NCBI GenBank assembly: GCA_965220995.1
Contig: OZ244856.1
Location: forward strand, 97,407 to 161,406
Origin: Acidimicrobiia bacterium
Lineage (GTDB): Bacteria; Actinomycetota; Acidimicrobiia; Spongiisociales; ZC4RG35
DNA length: 64,000 nt
Direction of reading: 5' to 3'
Part shown: positions 8,608 to 44,087 of the stretch, piece by piece
Layout of the letters: every line of letters begins with the position of its first letter
Position numbering within the stretch: the first letter of the stretch is position 1
Position numbers and translations under genes: made by a program
Notes under the pieces: generated by a model
The model's database searches: none
What the model saw: only the letters and a program-made list of their open reading frames with translations
What the model was told of the DNA's origin: nothing

Positions 8608-10128
8608 ATGACCAATCTCTTGGAGATGCGGGGAGTCACCAAGCGCTTCCCCGGCGTGCTGGCCAATGATCGAATCGATTTCGATCTGCGCGCCGGGGAG
8701 GTGCACACCCTGTTGGGAGAAAACGGCGCCGGCAAGAGCACCCTGATGAAAATCCTCTACGGGCTCTATCAGCCTGACGAGGGGGAGCTTTTGATCGGTG
8801 GGGCACCCACTCGGATCGGAAGCCCGATCGACGCCATTGAGCACGGGATCGGGATGGTGCACCAACACTTCATGCTGGTTCCCAGTCTCACGGTCACCGA
8901 GAACGTGGCGATGGGCGCCATCTCACGCAAGAGAAGCAGGATGAACCTGCGGGGGGTGGCCGATCGGATCCGGGAACTGTCGGAATCTCATGGGCTGGCC
9001 GTCGATCCCGACGCTCACATTTGGCAACTGTCGGTGGGCGAACGCCAAAGGGTGGAGATCATCAAGGCCCTGTATCGGGATGTCAAGATGCTGGTGCTGG
9101 ACGAACCCACCGCGGTGTTGACTCCCGGCGAGGTGGAGGATCTGTTCAACATCCTCCGTCAGATGGCCCAGGAGGGGCGGGGTCTGGTGTTCATCTCTCA
9201 CAAACTCCATGAGGTGCTGGCCCTGAGCGACCGGATCACCGTTCTTCGCCATGGCCGGGTGACCGGGGAGGTGGAGGCCGGGGAAGCCACCCGCGAGATG
9301 CTGGCTTCGATGATGGTGGGCCGTCCGGTCCGCCTTGCGCCCGACAAGCCGCCCTTGGCGCCGGGTCGGACCCGTTTGAATATCCGCGATCTGACGGTCA
9401 TGGGCGACCGGGGCCTTCCGGCCCTGCAGAACCTGGACCTGCAGGTCCGGGAAGGAGAGATTCTGGGTGTGGCCGGCGTCTCGGGTAACGGGCAACGCGA
9501 GTTGGCCGAGGCCATAGCCGGACTGCGGAAACCGGTTTCGGGAGCGATCGAAGTCAACGACAACGACGTGGCGGGCCGCAAGCCTTCCGCAGTGAGAGCG
9601 GCAGGTTTGGCCTACGTGCCCGAGGAACGAGAGCGGGACGGCGCCATCGGCGCTTTCACCGTGTCGGAGAATCTGATTCTGGTGAACCATGACCAGCCCC
9701 CCATGAGCCGCAGGGGTTTTTTGCGCAACGGCGAGATTCGCAGTCGCGGCCGGCGTTTGGTCGACAATTTTTCGGTGGTTACTCCCGGTTTGGATGTTCC
9801 GGCTTCCAATCTTTCGGGAGGCAACCTGCAAAAGCTGATACTGGCTCGGGAACTATCGGGTTCGCCTTCCGTGCTGGTGGCGTCCCAACCCACCCGGGGA
9901 GTGGATATCGGCGCCGCCGAGTACATCCATGATCGCCTCATCCAGCAGCGCGGCTCCCAGTCGGTGGCCATCCTGCTGATATCCGAGGACCTGGACGAGG
10001 TGTTGGGTTTGGCCGATCGGATTGTGGTGATCTATGAGGGCCGCATCGTGGGAGAAGTAAGCGGGGAGGAAGCAGACCGCCAGACCATCGGTTTGATGAT
10101 GGCCGGCGTGGGGGTCGCAGAGGAGTGA
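8608..10128 (+). CDS. ABC transporter ATP-binding protein with duplicated ATPase domains (sugar/nucleoside type)
   Basis: Two Walker A motifs (GENGAGKST; GVSGNGQRE), an LSGG/LSVGE signature and two Walker B motifs. Start set at MTNLLEMRGV, because the track ORF begins inside the SBP gene. Confidence 0.85.
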   Translation: MTNLLEMRGVTKRFPGVLANDRIDFDLRAGEVHTLLGENGAGKSTLMKILYGLYQPDEGELLIGGAPTRIGSPIDAIEHGIGMVHQHFMLVPSLTVTENVAMGAISRKRSRMNLRGVADRIRELSESHGLAVDPDAHIWQLSVGERQRVEIIKALYRDVKMLVLDEPTAVLTPGEVEDLFNILRQMAQEGRGLVFISHKLHEVLALSDRITVLRHGRVTGEVEAGEATREMLASMMVGRPVRLAPDKPPLAPGRTRLNIRDLTVMGDRGLPALQNLDLQVREGEILGVAGVSGNGQRELAEAIAGLRKPVSGAIEVNDNDVAGRKPSAVRAAGLAYVPEERERDGAIGAFTVSENLILVNHDQPPMSRRGFLRNGEIRSRGRRLVDNFSVVTPGLDVPASNLSGGNLQKLILARELSGSPSVLVASQPTRGVDIGAAEYIHDRLIQQRGSQSVAILLISEDLDEVLGLADRIVVIYEGRIVGEVSGEEADRQTIGLMMAGVGVAEE

Positions 10129-10180
10129 CCCCTCGAGTCAAGCCCGGTGAACAGCAGCCCATAACAGAGGAGGCGCCTTT

Positions 10181-11026
10181 ATGTCCAGCCAAGTGGTAAC
10201 CGCCGCTCTTGTCCAGTCGGAATGGACCGGTGACAAGGAGTCGATGGTGGAAAAGAACATCGGCTATGCCAGGGAAGCCGCCTCCCGGGGGGCCCGGGTG
10301 CTGTGTTTCCAGGAGATTTTCAACAGCCCCTACTTCTGCAATGTGCAGGACAGCGACAACTATTCCTACGCCGAGCCGATCCCCGACGGCCCCACTATCA
10401 CCAGGATGATTTCTTTGGCCCGCGAGACCAAGATGGTGCTGGTGGTTCCCATCTATGAGGTGGTGGACGAGGGGACCTTTTACAACGCCGCGGCGGTGAT
10501 CGACGCCGACGGAACCTACCTGGGAAAATATCGCAAGACCCATATTCCCCAGGTGAAGGGTTTCTGGGAAAAGTTCTATTTCAAGCCGGGGAACCTGGGC
10601 TACCCCGTGTTCGACACCGCAGTGGGAAGAATCGGCGTGTACATCTGCTACGATCGCCACTTCCCCGAAGGGTGGCGGGTGCTGGGCCTGAAAGGCGCCC
10701 GGATCGTTTTCAACCCTTCCGCCACCACCCGCGGGCACTCCAAGCACCTCTGGCAACTGGAGCAGCCCGCCTCGGCCGTGGCCAACGAATACTTCGTGGG
10801 CGCTATCAACCGGGTGGGATCCGAGGGCCTGACGGACACCGATTATTACGGGTCCTCATACTTTGTCAATCCCCGCGGAGAGATAGTGGGAGAAACCGCG
10901 TCGGATACCGAGGAAGAGGTGTTGGTGCGCCAACTTGATCTGGGACTGGTGGAAGAGGTCCGCCGTTACTGGGCCTTCTACCGGGACCGCCGACCCGAGG
11001 TCTACGAAGAGGTGGCGGCTCCCTGA
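10181..11026 (+). CDS. Beta-ureidopropionase / N-carbamoyl-amine amidase-like CN-hydrolase (nitrilase superfamily)
   Basis: Nitrilase-superfamily fold with catalytic-Cys context 'GVYICYDRHFPE', 'VLCFQE', 'FYFKPG'. It resembles beta-alanine synthase / N-carbamoylputrescine amidase and is the last gene of the transporter operon. Confidence 0.8.
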   Translation: MSSQVVTAALVQSEWTGDKESMVEKNIGYAREAASRGARVLCFQEIFNSPYFCNVQDSDNYSYAEPIPDGPTITRMISLARETKMVLVVPIYEVVDEGTFYNAAAVIDADGTYLGKYRKTHIPQVKGFWEKFYFKPGNLGYPVFDTAVGRIGVYICYDRHFPEGWRVLGLKGARIVFNPSATTRGHSKHLWQLEQPASAVANEYFVGAINRVGSEGLTDTDYYGSSYFVNPRGEIVGETASDTEEEVLVRQLDLGLVEEVRRYWAFYRDRRPEVYEEVAAP

Positions 11027-11290
11027 TCCCGGGTTGAGACCCTTGGGAGAGATCGCGAAAAAAGCAGGCCGGTAGGGCTTGACATCGGTCGCAGCCTCTC
11101 CTACATACTGATCAGACCAAACACCTCCCGGTCCGCTCCGGCGCCGTTCGGACTGCGCAGACTCCTGTGAAAAGAGGTCATACTCCTATCGGATCGCGGT
11201 CCGGCTCATCACTGCTGGCCACCCGCGTCCCGATCCCTGGCTAGGTGGCGGTGGGGGTGGGGCCCGACGGACGGGAAAATCCGGGCCGTT

Positions 11291-12716
11291 TTTAAGCGGT
11301 ACTTCGGAAATTAGTGGGGAGTGATGGTTGCGAGGAGTTTCCAGTTGGGTTTTCCGGCGTAGAGGAGTGCTCGGATTCGGTAGTTGTCGAAGTTCCGAAA
11401 ACCGAATGCTGCTCGTTTGATCCGTTTGATCAGGTTGTTCAGTCCCTCGGTGGGTCCGTTCGTCACTTTCGAGTGATGCCAGTTGGTGATCTGGGTGGCC
11501 CACCTGCTGATGGTCCGTCCCAGGCGGTTCACCTCTGGAGGGAGTGACCGGTCCTGCAGATCCGAGGCCAGCTGCTGGGTGAACTCCCAAGCCAGTTGTG
11601 GGTCTCCGATCTGGTAGATGTCCCGGACGCTTTCCTTAGCCGACCAGGCATCCCGTACCTCTCCGTAGGGGTCACCAGCCCGTAACAAGCCCCGGAGGCG
11701 GGATTCGCCGTGGCTGTCGATCCTTTCATGGGCCATTATCAAAAGCCGTCGTATGCGATACAGCGGGTCGCGTTTGCGTCCCCGGTGTCCCAGTGTCTCG
11801 TTCTGCACCCGGCATCGGACCTGATCGACGGTGCGGTTAGCCAACCTGATGACATGAAACGGGTCAGCCACCTGAAAGGCGTGGGGCAACACCTGGTCGT
11901 AGGCCACCTGATAAGGGCCGGACAAGTCCAACACCGCCCACTTGATCGCCTCACGCCACCCCTCTGGTTGGTTCCGGAACCAACCAGCCGCGCTTTTTAC
12001 GGTTCTACCAGGCACTATGTCCAACAACTGACACCCACCGACATCCACCACCGACGTGCACCACTGCTTGGTACGCCACCGGCCCTTCTTCCAGAACAGG
12101 GTCTCGTCCACTCCCACCGCCTCCACCCGCCCGAACCGGGCGGTGTCGGCTTCCAACAGCGACTTTCCCCATCGGACGGTCTCCTGGTTCACCGTATGCC
12201 AATCACACCCCAACTCGGCGGCCACCTCCGACACAGTACGCCCCAAACGGCCCACCTGATAAGTGACCCACCGCCCCGCCCGAGACGTCAACAAAGCCCG
12301 CTCCGGCGCCACCGACTCGTCCTGTTCCACAAACGACCCCACGCCGCATTCCCCATCAGGACACATCCAACGACGTTTCCGCCACCGCAACCGCACCGGC
12401 CGCCCAAACGCCGGCAAATCCACCAACCCCACCGTCCGATAGCCCTTCGACCACACCCCACCACCGCACTCATCGCATACTGGACGAAAAGCGCCCGATC
12501 TGATCGTCACCCTCAACCGGTCACCCGAAAGCTCCTCCACCCCTACCAAGTCCACGTCACCCAACCCGACCAACACCTCACACATACGCCTACCATCAGT
12601 CTCCACAGGGTCCTCCTTTCAGATGCGACTGCTTTCAGCACCCGATTATGGAGGACCCTCCCCCACAATCAATGGATTCCCCACTCCCCACTAATTTCCG
12701 AAGATCCTTTTAAGCG
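11291..12716 (-). mobile_element. ISL3-family insertion sequence, apparently intact
   Basis: Terminal inverted repeats of about 32-35 bp, with a perfect 22-bp core CTTCGGAAATTAGTGGGGAGTG at 11302-11323 and its reverse complement at 12683-12704. These flank a single full-length transposase ORF, and the length of about 1.43 kb is typical of ISL3. Confidence 0.8.
11311..12606 (-). CDS. ISL3 family transposase
   Basis: The C-terminal hallmark TNGPTEGLNNLIKRIKRAAFGFRNFDNYRIRALLY is typical of ISL3 transposases. The reading frame is intact at 431 aa. The 345-aa ORF on the opposite strand is spurious. Confidence 0.9.
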   Translation of the reverse strand: METDGRRMCEVLVGLGDVDLVGVEELSGDRLRVTIRSGAFRPVCDECGGGVWSKGYRTVGLVDLPAFGRPVRLRWRKRRWMCPDGECGVGSFVEQDESVAPERALLTSRAGRWVTYQVGRLGRTVSEVAAELGCDWHTVNQETVRWGKSLLEADTARFGRVEAVGVDETLFWKKGRWRTKQWCTSVVDVGGCQLLDIVPGRTVKSAAGWFRNQPEGWREAIKWAVLDLSGPYQVAYDQVLPHAFQVADPFHVIRLANRTVDQVRCRVQNETLGHRGRKRDPLYRIRRLLIMAHERIDSHGESRLRGLLRAGDPYGEVRDAWSAKESVRDIYQIGDPQLAWEFTQQLASDLQDRSLPPEVNRLGRTISRWATQITNWHHSKVTNGPTEGLNNLIKRIKRAAFGFRNFDNYRIRALLYAGKPNWKLLATITPH

Positions 12717-37774: not shown

Positions 37775-38098
37775 TCAGAAGAACCGGAGGAGTATCCCCA
37801 CTGCTCCGAGGATCGCCAAGGCTATCCACACGGTGCGTCCGAAGGCCCTGTGCAGTCCGGCGATCTGTACCTCGATTTTGGCGATCTCCACTTCAATTCT
37901 GCTGTTGAGGGTGGTCTCCAGTCGGTCCATTCGACCGTTGAGGCTCCCTTCCAGTTGGTCCATTCGACCGTTGAGGCTCCCTTCCAGTCGGTCCATCCTG
38001 TTTTCCAGGTCGTGTTTGACCAGCATGACGTCGCCTTTGGTGGCGGGTTTCGTCATCCAGTCGTCCTCGGCGATCAACTTTTCTACCTCCAGAGCCAT
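37775..38098 (-). CDS. Small coiled-coil protein with C-terminal transmembrane anchor (DUF1640-like), containing an 11-aa tandem repeat
   Basis: RMDRLEGSLNG / RMDQLEGSLNG / RMDRLETTLNS repeats, then a hydrophobic tail 'VWIALAILGAVGILLRFF'. Confidence 0.5.
   Translation of the reverse strand: MALEVEKLIAEDDWMTKPATKGDVMLVKHDLENRMDRLEGSLNGRMDQLEGSLNGRMDRLETTLNSRIEVEIAKIEVQIAGLHRAFGRTVWIALAILGAVGILLRFF
37925..38010. repeat. 33-nt tandem repeat (about 2.6 copies) inside the small coiled-coil gene
   Basis: TCCATTCGACCGTTGAGGCTCCCTTCCAGTTGG is repeated head-to-tail, as seen directly in the sequence. Confidence 0.6.
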
Positions 38099-38315
38099 CG
38101 CATCCTCCCTTCGGGCTGGTTTGCTATATGTCCCCCTATTGGACCTGCTTTCTGTGGCATGCTACCCCAATACGGGAGTAATGCAACCCCGACTACGACC
38201 TAGCGCCGGGAGATGTCAGAGAAGATTGCGGTCTAGATAAGAAGAGTCGAGGCACGCCCGCAGTACGGCGTTGGAGACCGCAGCCTCACAATAGGCACCG
38301 TTCATATGTGAACTT

Positions 38316-40508
38316 ATGTTTACTTTTCTGAGCCGGTTCCGGCGTCAGACAGCAGTCCTGACAGCCCTGGCACTGGTAGCCAGCGTCCTGGTCACCGTAC
38401 CAGTGTCGGCTGCTGATGACGATCCGGAGGCGAATTTTGAGGCTACTTTCAGTGCCTGTGAGGGTTTGGATGCGGCTGGGTTCGAGGATGTTCCCACCGG
38501 TCATTCCAGTGCAGGGTCGATTGATTGTATTGCGTACTACGGGATTACCAGGGGAACTTCGGCTACTACCTACTCGCCGCTGATGTCGGTCACTCGTGAG
38601 CACATGGCCCTGTTCTTGACCCGTTTGGCCGCTCGGGTGGGTATCGACATGACTGCCGATCCCGATGATGCGGGGTTCACTGACATTGGTGAACTACCTG
38701 ATGAGTCGCAGACCGCCATCAATCAGTTGGCCGATCTCGACATCACCACAGGAAAGTCAGCTACTACGTATGCACCGGCTGATTCGGTGACCCGCGGCGA
38801 GATGGCACTGTTCATCTCCAGGTTGATGGACTTGATGGATCCGATGGCCGATGGTGATACCCCTTATGGGTATATCCCATCTGATGTGGTCACGAACGAA
38901 GATGACCATGACATTGGTTCTCCGTTCGCCAACGACTTGAAGGGGTCGGTAGTCACCGTCGCGGACGCAGTTGAGCAGTTGTGGGAGTTGGGTGTGGCTA
39001 CGGGTATCTCCGCCACGGCCTATGCTCCGAACGCCTCGATCACCCGCGCGGCGATGGCTGACTTCATGGCTGCTGTGTTGAATCATTCCAACGCTCGCCC
39101 GGCCGGTGTGACCATGCAGGCGACCTCGACTGAGGACTTCGGAACCGCCAGTTCCACACTTGCCATTTCTTATCGGGATGAGAACTTCGCGCCCATGGTG
39201 GACACATCGATCAAGATCTTCGATACCGAAGACGTTGGAGACTTTGACGAGGACGGCAAGTGCGCTGCTGCTGCTGACTGCGAATGGACCGATAGCGAAA
39301 CTCTCACTAACGCTGCAGGAAATATCTTCCGCGCTGTGTCCGTTGCACTTGAGACGGGCAACGCTGCCAATGACAACACCTGGTATGCGTGGATGGGTGC
39401 TGAGAATGGTGATGAGTTTGTGATGGACCAGTCCGGCGAGGCGTCTATAACCGTCTCCGCTAAACCCCAATCCCTTGGGATGAGGATCATGGCGGACATT
39501 AGCGAAGAGGCCCGCGGCACTGGTGCTACAGGGGCAGGCATCAACGTCAACCTAGCTAAGGACAGTTCGGTCCTTCTCACCGTCCAACTCGTTGACGAGG
39601 CATCCGACAGTACGACGATCGCCAATGCTGATGCTGTGGCGAAAGCTGGCATCGAACTCAGTATCGCCTGGAGTCAGGTCCCCGGTGGAACCGTCCACCC
39701 GGCTCCTGCTCCGGTCACCACTGACGAAAACGGTCAGGCAACCTTCACCATAACCGGACCTGAGGACGACGACGACACGCTACAGACCAGGACTGACACC
39801 ATTACAGTCACGGGCAATGTTGACGGCGACGAAACCACAGGGACCAATGGCGATGAGAGTGCAGCCATTGAGATTATATGGACCGATGCTGCTGCTGAGG
39901 TAATAAAAGGTGAGGCCGAAACTCCCGACTATGTCCTAGTCGTAGATGACGAGGTGAGTGTTCGAGCTACGGTCACCTACTACGACCAGTACGGCAACCC
40001 TGCTGGCGGTGGTCAAAATGTTGACATCACGATCAACAACACCGACGACAACGATGACAGTGGGACGACCACCAAGACGGATCGGACTATTGACAGTCGC
40101 GGCACGGCGGGCTACCGCGGTTCTGTTTCGGCAGAAGCCGGTCACTCGATCACCGTTTCCTTCGCCAACGGCCCAACCAATGACGGTACCACTACCGGTA
40201 CAGCAGTTTCTGTAGACTCTGTTGAGGGCATTGAAGTGTTGAGGCACGCGCATAAGAACGACAACACGACCACGACGGCGGCAGTTACCATCTACGCCGA
40301 TGATGATGTGTTCCACTTCAGCGCTGACGACAGCGAGGCCCTGTACAGCTACGATTCGGACGATGTGTTTATCACCGGCGGAGCTACCGGAGGACAGACG
40401 GTCAGCATGGACAAGTTCGAAGAAATGGTTGAGGACGGTGCCACGGTACAGGTTGTGTCCTACAGCCCAGACGGACCAAGCGTCTTTACTGTGACCGCAA
40501 CAAGCTAA
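38316..40508 (+). CDS. S-layer-homology (SLH) domain surface protein, with three N-terminal SLH domains and Ig-like/adhesin-like repeats
   Basis: A signal peptide, then three SLH modules ('FEDVPTGHSSAGSIDCIAYYGITRG..', 'FTDIGELPDESQTAINQLADLDITTG..', 'FANDLKGSV..LWELGVATGIS..'), followed by a Thr/Asp/Gly-rich beta region. Confidence 0.8.
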   Translation: MFTFLSRFRRQTAVLTALALVASVLVTVPVSAADDDPEANFEATFSACEGLDAAGFEDVPTGHSSAGSIDCIAYYGITRGTSATTYSPLMSVTREHMALFLTRLAARVGIDMTADPDDAGFTDIGELPDESQTAINQLADLDITTGKSATTYAPADSVTRGEMALFISRLMDLMDPMADGDTPYGYIPSDVVTNEDDHDIGSPFANDLKGSVVTVADAVEQLWELGVATGISATAYAPNASITRAAMADFMAAVLNHSNARPAGVTMQATSTEDFGTASSTLAISYRDENFAPMVDTSIKIFDTEDVGDFDEDGKCAAAADCEWTDSETLTNAAGNIFRAVSVALETGNAANDNTWYAWMGAENGDEFVMDQSGEASITVSAKPQSLGMRIMADISEEARGTGATGAGINVNLAKDSSVLLTVQLVDEASDSTTIANADAVAKAGIELSIAWSQVPGGTVHPAPAPVTTDENGQATFTITGPEDDDDTLQTRTDTITVTGNVDGDETTGTNGDESAAIEIIWTDAAAEVIKGEAETPDYVLVVDDEVSVRATVTYYDQYGNPAGGGQNVDITINNTDDNDDSGTTTKTDRTIDSRGTAGYRGSVSAEAGHSITVSFANGPTNDGTTTGTAVSVDSVEGIEVLRHAHKNDNTTTTAAVTIYADDDVFHFSADDSEALYSYDSDDVFITGGATGGQTVSMDKFEEMVEDGATVQVVSYSPDGPSVFTVTATS

Positions 40509-40534
40509 ACCGTCCACATCATCTAACAAAGAGA

Positions 40535-40560
40535 TGGAGGCTCCCCAACCGGGGAGCCTC
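40535..40560. terminator. Perfect hairpin GGAGGCTCCCC-aacc-GGGGAGCCTCC between the two convergent SLH genes (bidirectional terminator candidate)
   Basis: 11-bp stem and 4-nt loop in the 77-bp gap between the convergent genes. Confidence 0.5.
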
Positions 40561-40585
40561 CATCAGATAGTCAAGTGTTTTCTGT

Positions 40586-42859
40586 TTATGAACCGACCGC
40601 GGTGACTCGGAAAATGCTGACACCGTCATCGTCGTAGAACACGACCTCGACAGAACCCGCAGTTCCGCCAGTACCTGCCTTGATCAGTCCTTCGAATTTC
40701 TCGAGGGTGATACGCCTGTCTTCGCCGGCGGCGGGGGCGTCGTCGCCGCTAGTGAGGCCGTTGATGAAGGTATCGCCGTCATCATAGCTGTACAGCGCAC
40801 CCGTGATGCGGAACCGGTCCTCCTTGTCGTAGACCGCAGTAATGGGAGTAGAGGCACCCGTACTGTCGTCATCGGCATGTCTCACTGGGACCACCGAACC
40901 GTCAGCAACCTCTGGAGTAGTGACATCATTTTCGTCGGCCGCGTCCCGGAGTGTATAGGTCACTTCTAAGACTGTGCCCAGAACCCCATCAAGGGTGCGG
41001 GTCCATCTGGCCATGCCTCTGCTACTCACGGTCCTTGTGTCGGAATTATCAGCCCCGGTACCGATGGCGATCGCCACATTTTCGCCCTTGCCGGCGGGGT
41101 TGCCGTACTGGTCGTAGAACGACACCGAGGCTCGGACGGTCACCTTGTTCTGGCCGCTCAAGAAAGCGTAAGGATCAGTGCTTCCCTTACCGGAACCCAC
41201 AGCTGCCCGAGAGATAGCGGTGCCACTCCCGTCTCCGACGGTGTCAGTGGCACCGGCCGGAAGCAGGGTCGGATTGGAGTCTGTCCAGACGATCCTGGTT
41301 ACCACGGTCTCATCATTACCGCCTGTTGCTGTGTACTCATCCGTCGGATCAGCCACATCATTCTGAGTGGTGCCGTTGTCGTTCACATCGGCTTCGAAGG
41401 TAATCATGTCGACCCTGTCAACATCAACGGCGCCCTTGGTGGACTTCGGACCGGAGGCGGTGTAAGTCACCATACCGTCATCATCGGTCTTCATCGGAGC
41501 AGGCCCCGGATGCAGGCGACTTGTGCCCTGGTTCACAGTAATGCTGACTTCAACACCGGACTTGGCCACCGGTTCACCAGTACCGTCGACCAACTGCGCG
41601 GTGACAGTGACACTGCTTGTAGCGTCTATATCCACCGTGTTCTCATTGGTGGAGTTCTCGTTGATGTCAGTAGTGACCTTCAGGTGCACAGCATCAGTGG
41701 TGGAAGACAGAGTTACTGTCGCATGGGGGGACGTGTCGACGTCGAAGTCGTTCTCGTCAGCGTCGGCATCACCCATCCACGCGTAGTAGGTGTTCATCTT
41801 CCCGTTTTCAGCGATGCCGTCCTGGAAGATGTTGCCCGAAACGTCAGTCAGCGACTCGTCATCGGTCCACGCGCAGTCAGAAGCCTCTCCACAGCCACCG
41901 TCCTCGTTGAACGAACCAACCGTGTCGCTGTCGAAGACCTTGACGGACACATCGACCATCGGCATGAACATGTCATCCCGATAGGACACAGCAATGGTGG
42001 TAGAGATGTCGCCGAAGTCCGAGGTGCTTGCAGCCTGGATGGTCACACCGGCCGGTCGGGCGTTGGAGTGATCCAACACTCCAGCCATGAAACCGGCCAT
42101 CGACGCACGGGTGATAGAAGCCGCCGGACCATACGAAGTGTCAGAAAGACCAGAAGCAACACCCAACTCCCACAACGCCGTTATCGCGTCATAGGTCGAC
42201 TTCGTCACCGAACCCAAATCAGTAAACGGCGACTCCGCCTTCTTGGTCTCATCCGCGTCAGTATCATCGTCGTCTTCGACATCAACCACATCTTCGGGGG
42301 TAAACCCAAACGGGGTGTCACCATCGGCCATCGGATCCATCTGATCCATCAACCGGCTGATGAACAAAGCCATGTGACCACGCTGCACCGGATCAGAAGG
42401 TGAATAGGTGGTGTCAGACGTGCCCTGGGTGATCCCAAGATCGGCCAACTGGTTGATCGCGGTCTGTGACTCGTCCGACAGGTCACCGATATCGGTGAAA
42501 CCCGCATCGTCAGGATCGGAAGCAACCTCGATTCCCACCAACCCGGCCAGGCGAGTCAAAAACAGGGCCATATGCTCACGCGTCACCGACATCAACGGCG
42601 AATACGTGGTAGCCGACGTTCCCAGAGTGATCCCGTAATAGGCAATACAGTCGATGTCACCCGCGTTTTCATGATTCGCCGGTACGTCGGTGAAGTCCGA
42701 GGTACCCGCACCAACACACGCTGAGAACGTCGCCGTGTAATCCGCTTTCGGATCGTCGTCAGCAGCCGACACTGGTACGGCGACCAGCACACTGGCCACC
42801 AGTGCCAGGGCTGTCAGGACTGCTGTCTGACGCCGGAACCGGCTCAGAAAAGTAAACAT
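40586..42859 (-). CDS. SLH-domain surface protein, a convergent paralog of the 38316-40508 gene
   Basis: The first 35 or so residues are identical (MFTFLSRFRRQTAVLTALALVASVLV.VPVSAADDDP), and paralogy extends through three SLH domains and about 350 aa before the C-terminal halves diverge. Confidence 0.8.
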   Translation of the reverse strand: MFTFLSRFRRQTAVLTALALVASVLVAVPVSAADDDPKADYTATFSACVGAGTSDFTDVPANHENAGDIDCIAYYGITLGTSATTYSPLMSVTREHMALFLTRLAGLVGIEVASDPDDAGFTDIGDLSDESQTAINQLADLGITQGTSDTTYSPSDPVQRGHMALFISRLMDQMDPMADGDTPFGFTPEDVVDVEDDDDTDADETKKAESPFTDLGSVTKSTYDAITALWELGVASGLSDTSYGPAASITRASMAGFMAGVLDHSNARPAGVTIQAASTSDFGDISTTIAVSYRDDMFMPMVDVSVKVFDSDTVGSFNEDGGCGEASDCAWTDDESLTDVSGNIFQDGIAENGKMNTYYAWMGDADADENDFDVDTSPHATVTLSSTTDAVHLKVTTDINENSTNENTVDIDATSSVTVTAQLVDGTGEPVAKSGVEVSITVNQGTSRLHPGPAPMKTDDDGMVTYTASGPKSTKGAVDVDRVDMITFEADVNDNGTTQNDVADPTDEYTATGGNDETVVTRIVWTDSNPTLLPAGATDTVGDGSGTAISRAAVGSGKGSTDPYAFLSGQNKVTVRASVSFYDQYGNPAGKGENVAIAIGTGADNSDTRTVSSRGMARWTRTLDGVLGTVLEVTYTLRDAADENDVTTPEVADGSVVPVRHADDDSTGASTPITAVYDKEDRFRITGALYSYDDGDTFINGLTSGDDAPAAGEDRRITLEKFEGLIKAGTGGTAGSVEVVFYDDDGVSIFRVTAVGS

Positions 42860-42977
42860 AAGTTCACTTATGCATGCATGAGTTACAACTCGTCAAAGGC
42901 GCCAAGACATGATCGTAAGGCTGACGGGGAAGGGTCGGTTCGGCGATTCTGGTTTTCCGGCGCTATCTGATGGCAGA

Positions 42978-44087
42978 TCAGGAACGGACCGCGGCGATGA
43001 TCTCTTCCACAGACAGGCCGTCCAATCCCAGTCGGTCCAGGGTGCGGCCCTGGGCGATCTCAGACTCCAACCCGGCCGCAGACGCCAGATTCAGCAGGGC
43101 CTCCGCCACCGGGGTCTTCACGCCCGCCACCTTGGCCAACTCCACCATGGGAAGTAACCCATAGCCGAAATCCTCGGTGTAATAGCGGTGACCGAGAGAA
43201 TCGGGAGCCATGATCCGGGCGTTGGCTGAGCCGCCCGAGATGGCGCCCTGCAGGTCTGATTGATCGGCATCGGCCTCCACCGTGCCGATCGCCAACATCT
43301 CCTCCATCAGGGATCCCAGACGGTATCCGAAGGCTTGCGCCACGGCCAGGCGTTCCCGGTCTACGCGTTCCATAACCGAAGCCACCCCGGAAGTCATCCC
43401 CTCCACGTAGAAACGAAAATCGCCGCCCGTGGCCTCCACCCAGGCGGCGGCCATTATCGCTCCGGGGGGATGAAGGACCATATTCACCTCCGCCAATCCC
43501 ACCGCCAGCACATCGGGCTGACGGATAGCACCCGGATAGAGATGGCCGACCAGATCCAATGTCGCTTCCCCACCGGGAAGGCACCCGACCAACATCCGGG
43601 CGGCCGCTCCGGTGATGTTCACCAACCACTGCGGGTCCACCTCCCCCGCCCGATTGTTTGCACCCCCGGCTGTGGCGCGGACCGTATAGGGAAGAGTGGA
43701 ACATTCGGCAATGGCGGGCAGGCACTCGACACCGCTATCCTGCATCACCTTCGCCACCTCCAAGGCGCCTCCCAGGTGACCGGGCGCCAACACCACGGGG
43801 TCCTCGCATCCCACCCGCGCCAAATGTCGGGCCACCTCCCGGTGAGCAGTGGAGGGCAGGCAAACCAGCACTCCGGCTGCTCCCCTCACCGCCTCTGCCA
43901 CGCTGTTGGTGCAGTTGACCGGCATCACCCCATCACCGAACACTCCTTGGTACGCCAGGTGAAACCCGGCAACAGGCTCTTTCGGCAACGTGCGCCGCCA
44001 CCAAACTACGTCGAACCCTCGCAGCGTCAGGTCGACTGTCGCCGCCATGCCCCCCGCTCCCCCTCCCATCACCACAATCCGGGTCAC
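42978..44087 (-). CDS. NAD(P)-dependent opine (octopine/nopaline-type) dehydrogenase-family protein
   Basis: N-terminal Rossmann 'IVVMGGGAGG' and a C-terminal 'YYTEDFGYGLLP' region typical of the opine dehydrogenase family. Confidence 0.75.
   Translation of the reverse strand: MTRIVVMGGGAGGMAATVDLTLRGFDVVWWRRTLPKEPVAGFHLAYQGVFGDGVMPVNCTNSVAEAVRGAAGVLVCLPSTAHREVARHLARVGCEDPVVLAPGHLGGALEVAKVMQDSGVECLPAIAECSTLPYTVRATAGGANNRAGEVDPQWLVNITGAAARMLVGCLPGGEATLDLVGHLYPGAIRQPDVLAVGLAEVNMVLHPPGAIMAAAWVEATGGDFRFYVEGMTSGVASVMERVDRERLAVAQAFGYRLGSLMEEMLAIGTVEADADQSDLQGAISGGSANARIMAPDSLGHRYYTEDFGYGLLPMVELAKVAGVKTPVAEALLNLASAAGLESEIAQGRTLDRLGLDGLSVEEIIAAVRS

Follow-up and report, generated by a model that had tools for sequence, protein, structure and literature searches.

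Two convergent SLH genes with a common 5′ end

The 64,000-nt stretch of DNA analysed here (the window) comes from an Acidimicrobiia bacterium (GCA_965220995.1, contig OZ244856.1, positions 97,407–161,406 of the forward strand) and carries two genes, here called A and B, that encode paralogous surface proteins with S-layer homology (SLH) domains. The genes are convergent, their open reading frames (ORFs) are intact, and a gap of 77 nt separates their stop codons. Each encodes three SLH repeats recognized by Pfam, which together with the ORFs bears out an earlier note on this DNA that had described two convergent paralogous SLH genes. Our comparative analysis leads us to conclude that A and B are intact modules of a large, previously undescribed multi-copy family of predicted SLH-anchored surface proteins. 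The two genes and their parts are arranged as follows (positions are those of the window):

38316–40508, + strand: gene A, ORF call, 730 aa; a signal peptide with the cleavage motif VSA/ADDD is followed by three SLH repeats and then by an all-beta body
40586–42859, − strand: gene B, ORF call, 757 aa, with the same architecture as A
38305–38430, + strand: conserved 5′ block of cassette A, from −11 relative to the start codon (TATGTGAACTT) through the signal-peptide coding region
42745–42870, − strand: conserved 5′ block of cassette B (TAAGTGAACTT followed by ATG...)
38475–39101, + strand: SLH cell-wall-anchoring region of A, three repeats (Pfam)
42050–42700, − strand: SLH cell-wall-anchoring region of B, three repeats (Pfam)
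39102–40505, + strand: variable exposed body of A, a predicted immunoglobulin (Ig)-like beta-sandwich array (AlphaFold, Foldseek)
40589–42049, − strand: variable exposed body of B, a predicted Ig-like beta-sandwich array with a weak Invasin_D3 match
40533–40564, no strand assigned: shared palindromic terminator hairpin, GATGGAGGCTCCCC-N4-GGGGAGCCTCCATC, with a perfect 14-bp stem, serving both convergent genes

The first 62 coding nucleotides of A and B are identical, a sequence that occurs exactly twice in the window (0 occurrences expected by chance), and the 8 nt GTGAACTT that precede the ATG extend the exact run to 70 nt (38308–38377 and 42798–42867). Scattered differences appear from +63 onward, the 60 nt after the exact run being 87% identical, and on the other side homology ends ~13 nt upstream of the ATG, where the leaders read cat[a/t]... 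(TATGTGAACTT for A, TAAGTGAACTT for B). This bears out the similar upstream leaders described in the earlier note. The same note had put the common 5′ end at roughly 100 nt; the near-identity at the start of the genes stands, but the inverted repeat that the two genes form at the DNA level is far longer and comprises 614 nt at 76% identity followed by 353 nt at 71%. The proteins align end to end in BLASTP (47% identity); taken by segment, identity falls from 97% over the signal peptide to 68% over the SLH region and 36% over the body. Since the bodies alone still match with an E-value of 4e-84, the proposed complete divergence of the C-terminal regions has to be given up.

As had also been stated, a single hairpin lies between the 3′ ends of the genes. 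It is predicted to fold with an energy between −34 and −38 kcal/mol (z-score near −5.3), and it scores as an intrinsic terminator on the strand of B. By homology, this hairpin belongs to the B-type module.

Identical 5′ ends could in principle be an artefact of assembly around a collapsed or chimeric repeat, and related contigs do often break in or near the 5′ block (L055, L056 and L037). We regard this as extremely improbable: many complete-chromosome assemblies show the pattern independently of one another, the ORFs of A and B are unbroken and have scattered differences beyond the exact run, and protein B recurs in a second assembly as P0044, which is 98–100% identical to it throughout.

Architecture of the A and B proteins

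The three SLH repeats match Pfam PF00395 with E-values of 8e-18 in A and 4.8e-21 in B, and a search with a family profile finds the SLH domain of Bacillus anthracis Sap (3pyw, E 7e-6). In the AlphaFold model of A (mean predicted local distance difference test score, pLDDT, of 75.8), a signal helix is followed by a helical SLH region of paired helices at residues ~60–260 and by an all-beta portion from residue 264, with beta-sandwiches at residues 264–727. Foldseek comparison of this model with the PDB returned only Ig-like or macroglobulin-type beta-sandwich chains, among them complement, alpha-2-macroglobulin, invasin, the FdeC adhesin and an ice-binding adhesin, with low TM-scores, as expected for flexible multi-domain chains. 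No enzyme domain was found in A or B with Pfam or NCBIfam, or in the model of A with Foldseek.

The combination of SLH repeats with a predicted Ig-like array and no enzyme domain points towards a resemblance to S-layer proteins, whose hallmarks are self-assembly into a two-dimensional lattice over the cell and very high expression. SbsB from Geobacillus stearothermophilus, for example, joins an SLH domain to six Ig-like domains, and SLH domains correlate with CsaB, the maker of the pyruvylated secondary cell-wall polymer (PMC4232325). SbsB and the Sap and EA1 proteins of B. anthracis are built to the same plan as the proteins studied here: an N-terminal signal peptide comes first, next the three SLH motifs, whose ligand is secondary cell-wall polymer, and then an Ig-like chain. 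However, they have no detectable similarity to the A/B family outside the SLH region, and the species concerned carry one or two such genes rather than a dozen.

A large multi-copy family in Acidimicrobiia

A protein database search returned 483 homologues, many of them on the same contig, the best match besides A itself being 53% identical. In a scan of one genome per species, we obtained 161 tblastn-confirmed matches, of which 80, in 53 loci, were kept. Nearly all matches lie in metagenome-assembled genomes (MAGs) of Acidimicrobiia or in small contigs binned elsewhere, and the isolate names suggest that the source is sponge and coral metagenomes. The survey of SLH proteins across the lineage that the earlier note had called for has brought to light a multi-copy family, with 10–15 copies per genome in sponge and coral Acidimicrobiia MAGs. 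Full-text literature searches for Acidimicrobiia and sponges together with SLH or S-layer proteins found no paper, and the family did not turn up in a broader literature search that took in SLH domains, phase variation and recombinases.

The copies can be concentrated in islands, such as the one in OZ242000, where ~14 copies and three recombinase genes lie within 67 kb, and the one in OZ242375, which has at least 12 copies. Throughout the islands of complete chromosomes, orientation is mixed and convergent pairs resembling A and B are frequent; several such pairs share one hairpin. The two bodies of our pair differ in how widespread they are. The body of A is a rare type, its nearest relative in other genomes being 44% identical, whereas the body of B is the commonest type of the family (cluster 0 in a clustering of the regions downstream of the SLH repeats) and has 71–75% amino acid identity with copies from five other genomes. 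Full-length orthologues of B, ~78% identical in nucleotide sequence, occur in many genomes.

All copies follow one module plan: a conserved 5′ block of ~110 nt, from −11 through the signal peptide, a variable Ig-like body and a palindromic terminator hairpin. Both module ends are sharply defined. When B is compared with its orthologues, the homology block begins at 42870–42874, which corresponds to −11 to −15 relative to the start codon, and reaches to 40528, immediately beyond the hairpin. Among 51 aligned copies, information content rises at −11 from ~0.3 to 1.2–2.0 bits and stays high until ~+100. The junction GTRAACTT-ATG is exact in 57 of the 67 unique copies, and TAnGTrAACTT-ATGTTTrCT is the most conserved stretch of the family. 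At the opposite end, a hairpin of the form GGAGGCTCCCC-loop-GGGGAGCCTCC lies 20–45 nt past the stop codon of nearly every copy, whatever its body type. It occurs once in the 64-kb window and in related loci at cassette ends; this confinement marks the hairpin as part of the cassette, as opposed to a terminator in general use across the genome.

Two further explanations for the conserved start were considered and rejected. GTRAACTT does not qualify as a −10 promoter element or as the mark of a leaderless mRNA, because TAAACT lies too near the ATG and the variant found in the window, TGAACT, breaks the TANNNT pattern. The second concerns the sequence GTGAAC-TTAT-GTTTAC at the start codons of A and B (38308–38323 and 42852–42867), which as RNA can fold into a 6-bp hairpin whose loop holds the AU of the AUG. 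Taken as an RNA mini-hairpin or DNA palindrome of the general form GTRAAC-TTAT-GTTTRC, it pairs in 90% of cells, with covariation no better than in shuffles (330/500), and in the variants found in the family it is G·U wobbles alone that preserve the pairing.

Concerted evolution of the 5′ block and reassortment of bodies

Among copies whose signal peptides are identical as protein, the coding sequences of A and B differ at 3 of 78 nt. Each differs from two copies in OZ219757 at 7–13 nt, whereas those two differ from one another at only 4 nt. Lineage-specific synonymous variants are therefore common to the paralogues of one genome, which argues for gene conversion and not merely for selection on the peptide. 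A comparison within the pair gives the same picture: codons for the same amino acid are identical between A and B in 21 of 24 cases over the first 25 codons, compared with 18 of 35 in the SLH1 core (Fisher p = 0.004), a region that is equally conserved. These patterns indicate that the 5′ block is converted in concert within genomes, and the 70-nt identity of A and B is best read as a recent conversion tract within the 5′ block of the family.

Similar tracts reach further into the genes elsewhere. B and P0122 are 93–98% identical over the first 180 aa and ~45% identical further on, and identity between B and P0024 ranges from 38% to 95% along their length. Other pairs of paralogues with different bodies have 5′-anchored tracts of ~500 nt that are 93–96% identical.

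Whole bodies also appear in different contexts. One type of upstream leader (type 1, described below) is fused, in five genomes, to bodies from five clusters: CBDBCY has the B type, OY762464 has the cluster nearest A (44% identical to A), and three further types are found in OZ242375, OZ242000 and OZ253443. In other genomes, the bodies most closely related to these occupy sites without a Shine-Dalgarno sequence. An integrase-adjacent leader likewise precedes bodies of two clusters, cluster 0 in L001 and cluster 3 in OZ242000. Furthermore, related genomes differ by whole cassettes, with alignments that start at approximately −8 to −12 and end just past the hairpin.

A minority of copies carry an apparent expression site

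The Shine-Dalgarno (ribosome-binding) sequence AGGAGG stands 11 nt before the ATG, directly preceding the −11 boundary, in 12 of the 67 unique copies, with no more than two such copies per genome. Ten of these 12 also carry a promoter-like motif and a leader of ~100 nt. The upstream regions of the AGGAGG copies fall into two types, each conserved over ~130 nt across genomes, and both types contain TGTAAC-N16-17-(C/A)GTCTTG, the ~100-nt leader and a 10-bp palindrome (GATTGCAATC or GCAAGCTTGC) just before the AGGAGG. A dimeric regulator may use the palindrome as its operator. In their −35- and −10-like elements, the promoter-like motifs appear to resemble promoters recognized by extracytoplasmic function (ECF) sigma factors. 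No ECF sigma factor gene was found among the upstream genes examined near the expression sites (GT2, DUF5719, PGI and PIN-domain genes). The type-1 site lies downstream of envelope-like genes for a family-2 glycosyltransferase, a DUF5719 protein and a PGI-domain protein (L032 2313–8490; L055 621–2279). Positions of the motif, as found by motif search, are:

Promoter-like motif: L014 14755, L019 9882, L020 7112/9884, L028 15160 and L032 9876
Promoter-like motif: L033 15221, L034 9875, L037 9880 and L052 2618; also L055 ~9835

As the motif was derived from the very copies that it marks, its presence there is circular, and the genuine test lies in its specificity. On both strands of 953 kb, TGTAAC-N15-19-[ACG]GTCTT occurs 10 times, in every case 95–129 nt upstream of a Shine-Dalgarno copy, and the 55 other copies all lack it within 400 nt. 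For the body at the OZ242000 expression site, there is a 93% identical copy at a site that lacks a Shine-Dalgarno sequence.

Neither A nor B has the features of an expression site. The promoter-like motif TGTAAC-N15-19-[ACG]GTCTT is absent from the 64-kb window, promoter prediction gives no sigma-70-like site ahead of either gene, and neither a Shine-Dalgarno sequence nor the expression-site leader was found at A or B. The two flanks are as follows:

37689–38304, + strand: region upstream of A, which lacks a Shine-Dalgarno sequence, a leader and a promoter-like site; a small ORF lies antisense within it
42871–42977, − strand: region upstream of B, 107 nt up to an octopine-dehydrogenase-like gene on the same strand, without Shine-Dalgarno sequence, leader or promoter-like site

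The region upstream of A has no similarity to any of the related loci. The antisense ORF within it (37775–38098, − strand) encodes 107 aa without a significant family match and comprises a predicted coiled coil from three 33-nt tandem repeats (LEGSLNGRMD; 37893–37996) and a hydrophobic C-terminal tail.

Recombinases, mobile elements and genomic setting

A gene for a tyrosine recombinase (Pfam Phage_integrase with a SAM-like N-terminal domain) lies 155 bp from a cassette start in L001. An island recombinase gene occupies L001 19641–20738. Homologues that are ~70% identical occur in 12 loci, mostly 155–230 bp upstream of a cassette start codon in divergent or tandem orientation, with several paralogues per island. 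The NCBIfam XerA/integron-integrase model gives only a sub-threshold match (19 bits against a cut-off of 220). Concerted evolution, mosaic genes, reassorted bodies and these recombinase genes together lend support to the earlier suggestion that the common 5′ ends are a substrate for recombination or gene conversion.

Other genes are found between the cassettes. HEPN/nucleotidyltransferase pairs of a toxin–antitoxin-like kind occupy L001 122–929 and 8789–9237 and related positions in OZ242000, a DUF3800 gene is also interspersed, and some of the interspersed genes are duplicated at 93% identity. In the window itself, an ISL3-family insertion sequence (11285–12713; transposase at 11311–12606, − strand, Pfam DDE_Tnp_ISL3, E 2e-57) is bounded by terminal inverted repeats, GGTACTTCGGAAATTAGTGGGGA, and shows a target duplication of 8 bp, TTTTAAGC. 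Copies that are 99.7% identical adjoin SLH cassettes in L029, where the copy is truncated and fused 1 nt before the cassette ATG, and in L025, where it lies just past the cassette terminator. These two contigs, binned as “Caldilineaceae” and “Latescibacterota”, probably belong to the species of the window.

Directly upstream of A, window positions 32278–37688 encode a DUF4143 AAA ATPase, which matches the PADLOC candidate defence family PDC-S01 (E 2e-152), and a 1383-aa ORF that overlaps it by 4 nt and has no Pfam domain and a weakly LmuA-like C-terminus; the two may form a two-gene defence system. GC content is 56–60% over ~32000–43000, which includes the defence-like genes and A and B, and steps sharply to 64–65% at ~43000, where metabolic genes start. 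The cassette pair is thus at the edge of a flexible, lower-GC region of ~11 kb. Rfam and tRNA scans found nothing in the window.

This setting is relevant to a reading in which there is no variation system and the 5′ block is either an attachment or target site of integrase-bearing mobile elements or part of an integron-like mobilization of cassettes. It draws on the integrase genes 155–230 bp from the −11 boundary in many loci, the HEPN/nucleotidyltransferase toxin–antitoxin-like pairs among the cassettes, the ISL3-family copies that abut cassettes in contigs from the species of the window, and the location of A and B in a low-GC flexible region beside candidate defence genes. Yet no element boundaries or direct repeats were identified, and integrases are absent from many cassette pairs, A and B included. 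Nor do the cassettes behave like those of integrons. Both systems would combine a tyrosine recombinase with promoterless bounded modules whose expression depends on position, but integron cassettes are co-oriented, carry 3′ attC sites and encode unrelated functions, whereas the Acidimicrobiia cassettes are paralogous, lie in mixed orientation and have their 5′ element inside the coding sequence; the only conserved 3′ element that we found is the terminator hairpin, with nothing else attC-like. We consider this reading improbable.

Proposed reserve cassettes and alternative explanations

With slightly better than even confidence, we favour a model in which A and B serve as a reserve of cassettes for an expression site at another place in the genome, the role that is most likely for genes without the motif, the leader and the Shine-Dalgarno sequence. 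The conserved cassette ends would be the handles by which copies recombine and undergo gene conversion with one another. Conversion would homogenize the 5′ blocks within a genome, which would account for the 70-nt identity of A and B, and would also yield mosaic genes and move bodies between chromosomal sites. The 3′ hairpin would offer a second homology handle that, together with the 5′ block, could allow replacement of a whole body by gene conversion. A and B themselves would be silent or poorly translated, and their bodies would be expressed as coat protein after recombination into the expression site. More broadly, Acidimicrobiia symbionts might have a programmed coat-variation system with 10–15 complete cassettes per genome, each delimited by a 5′ recombination block and a palindromic 3′ hairpin, which tyrosine recombinases and/or gene conversion would move into one or two expression sites with a dedicated ECF-like promoter, and in which A and B are kept in reserve; we put this forward tentatively, as plausible but somewhat short of an even chance. 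We infer that copies outside the expression sites are silent, that switching occurs in populations by a site-specific or a homologous route, and that its purpose is evasion of phages, predators or the host.

The left flank of the pair is marked by …CACCGTTCATATGTGAACTT, B by the specific sequence GGTGGCCAGTGTGCTGGTCGCC… and the expression site by AGGAGGTAAGTGAACTTATGTTTAC. The exact 43-nt junction of the window had no match in a metagenome scan. A second scan, for the expression-site junction, returned two contigs; L055, L056 and L008 represent one arrangement, with no variant. A possible swap was seen in L037, whose expression-site flank (9989–10976) is 91–93% identical to that of OZ242375 (L024, from 10001), two species-level genomes, while its cassette from −12 on is 99.8–99.9% identical to a non-Shine-Dalgarno cassette elsewhere in OZ242375. 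We did not accept this case as proof of a swap, since the short-read contig stops 1 kb further on and could be chimeric; L037 represents either a recent cassette transfer or swap between lineages or a short-read chimera.

Besides the ambiguity of L037, several observations weigh against reserve cassettes. The expression site of this genome was not seen in the 64-kb window, and a tblastn search of the window with an island recombinase (E ≤ 1e-3) found no recombinase. The two metagenome scans revealed neither switching within a population nor alternative junctions. The “promoter” is a motif derived from the copies that it marks, and a crude Shine-Dalgarno test on the other genes of the window did not separate signal from background. 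B may be transcribed by read-through from the upstream operon, a possibility that follows from the absence of a predicted terminator upstream of B. Finally, of the 48 non-Shine-Dalgarno copies whose stop codon falls inside the fetched locus, 45 are intact, which fits independent expression as well as it does maintained reserve cassettes.

The intact ORFs of A, B and these 45 copies are also what would be expected if A and B were ordinary paralogues, each with its own weak or unrecognized promoter and Shine-Dalgarno-free translation, and both displayed on the cell. The 5′ identity would then reflect strong constraint on the signal peptide and on the region where translation starts, with occasional conversion, and the Shine-Dalgarno copies would merely be the most highly expressed ones. 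In favour of this reading, the A/T-rich codons after the ATG (TTT, xCT) are invariant and could serve translation initiation, and some non-Shine-Dalgarno upstream regions are conserved between genomes. The crude test did not establish that the organism depends on Shine-Dalgarno sequences, and several S-layer genes can be co-expressed in lactobacilli (PMC3666127). However, purifying selection cannot explain the lineage-specific synonymous variants common to the paralogues of one genome. The sharp start of conservation at −11, directly downstream of the Shine-Dalgarno position, would also go unexplained, as would the restriction of the motif to Shine-Dalgarno copies and the occurrence of one leader type with five body types. 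We therefore rate ordinary paralogy as a possible but rather unlikely explanation.

A third proposal makes the pair a two-state inversion switch of the slpA/slpB kind, in which recombination between the inverted 70-nt repeats would flip a 4.4-kb segment and thereby exchange the body that lies behind an active upstream region. Boot et al (1996), as summarized in PMC3666127, describe for Lactobacillus acidophilus two S-layer genes in opposite orientation, of which the silent one is placed by inversion behind a promoter outside the segment. This topology is the same as that of A and B: the 5′ blocks are inverted, the genes convergent and the hairpin single. With 70 nt of exact identity sufficing for homologous recombination, inversion between the 5′ blocks would be physically possible and would swap the bodies between the flanks. 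The earlier assertion that a simple inversion cannot switch expression is thus geometrically wrong, because each body lands behind the upstream region of the other gene. Inversion of the slp segment is documented in L. acidophilus (PMC3666127), and convergent pairs of the same geometry, with one expression-site and one non-expression-site copy, exist in OZ242000 and OZ219757. In the window, however, neither flank has a promoter-like site, leader or Shine-Dalgarno sequence, so that the two states would not be obviously different, and no recombinase is present. As neither flank looks like an expression site, local inversion is probably not the switch, and we give this proposal little weight. The description of A and B as a cassette pair for surface variation in the earlier note can accordingly be kept in part: the family is large, modular, mosaic and reassorted, but the A/B pair itself is unlikely to be the switch.

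Comparison with known systems of surface variation

Variation of surface proteins from silent cassettes is known mainly from a few pathogens and lactobacilli. In the sap system of Campylobacter fetus, complete paralogues are clustered in mixed orientation, with a conserved 5′ region, divergent bodies and a single promoter, and the expressed gene is changed by DNA rearrangement between the conserved 5′ regions. The Sap proteins of C. fetus have no SLH domains, are exported by type I secretion and bind lipopolysaccharide; inversion is mainly RecA-dependent and is not known to involve a tyrosine recombinase. The conserved 5′ region is much longer than the ~110 nt found here. The likeness to the Acidimicrobiia family lies in the complete, clustered paralogues of mixed orientation and in the combination of a conserved 5′ region with divergent bodies. 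The Acidimicrobiia family differs in having one or two apparent expression sites, 10–15 cassettes and 3′ hairpins, and its switching is proposed here from sequence comparison. The C. fetus system is mentioned in PMC4232325 and PMC5634654.

The slp locus of L. acidophilus, in turn, has an active promoter on one flank, whereas neither flank of A and B looks active; its S-layer proteins have no SLH domains, and it comprises two genes rather than a large repertoire. In Mycoplasma agalactiae, the vpma genes have a conserved 5′ end with the signal peptide, and the adjacent tyrosine recombinase Xer1 lets them share a promoter by site-specific inversion; chimeras, duplications and deletions of mycoplasma surface genes also arise independently of a recombinase (PMC5634654). 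Together with M. bovis vsp and M. pulmonis vsa, this system resembles the Acidimicrobiia family as a multigene surface family with a conserved 5′ end and a recombinase adjoining the locus. Here, too, there are clear differences: the mycoplasma genes (6–16, with one recombinase per locus) encode lipoproteins of a wall-less organism, whereas the Acidimicrobiia islands have several recombinase paralogues and no defined recombination site, and the window has no recombinase.

Implications for Acidimicrobiia symbionts

The kind of system considered here is known; what is new are SLH cassettes that are conserved at both ends, with one or two expression sites and several recombinase paralogues, in uncultivated Actinomycetota symbionts. 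If the proposal is correct, it would be the first such system described in Actinomycetota, as far as our literature searches show. The boundaries at −11 and at the hairpin, the expression-site motif and the recombinases provide concrete, testable sequences, and the cassette loci would be useful markers of strain-level dynamics. Abundant uncultivated symbionts of sponges and corals would then keep a dozen interchangeable coat proteins, which would bear on how they escape phages and avoid phagocytosis by their filter-feeding hosts.

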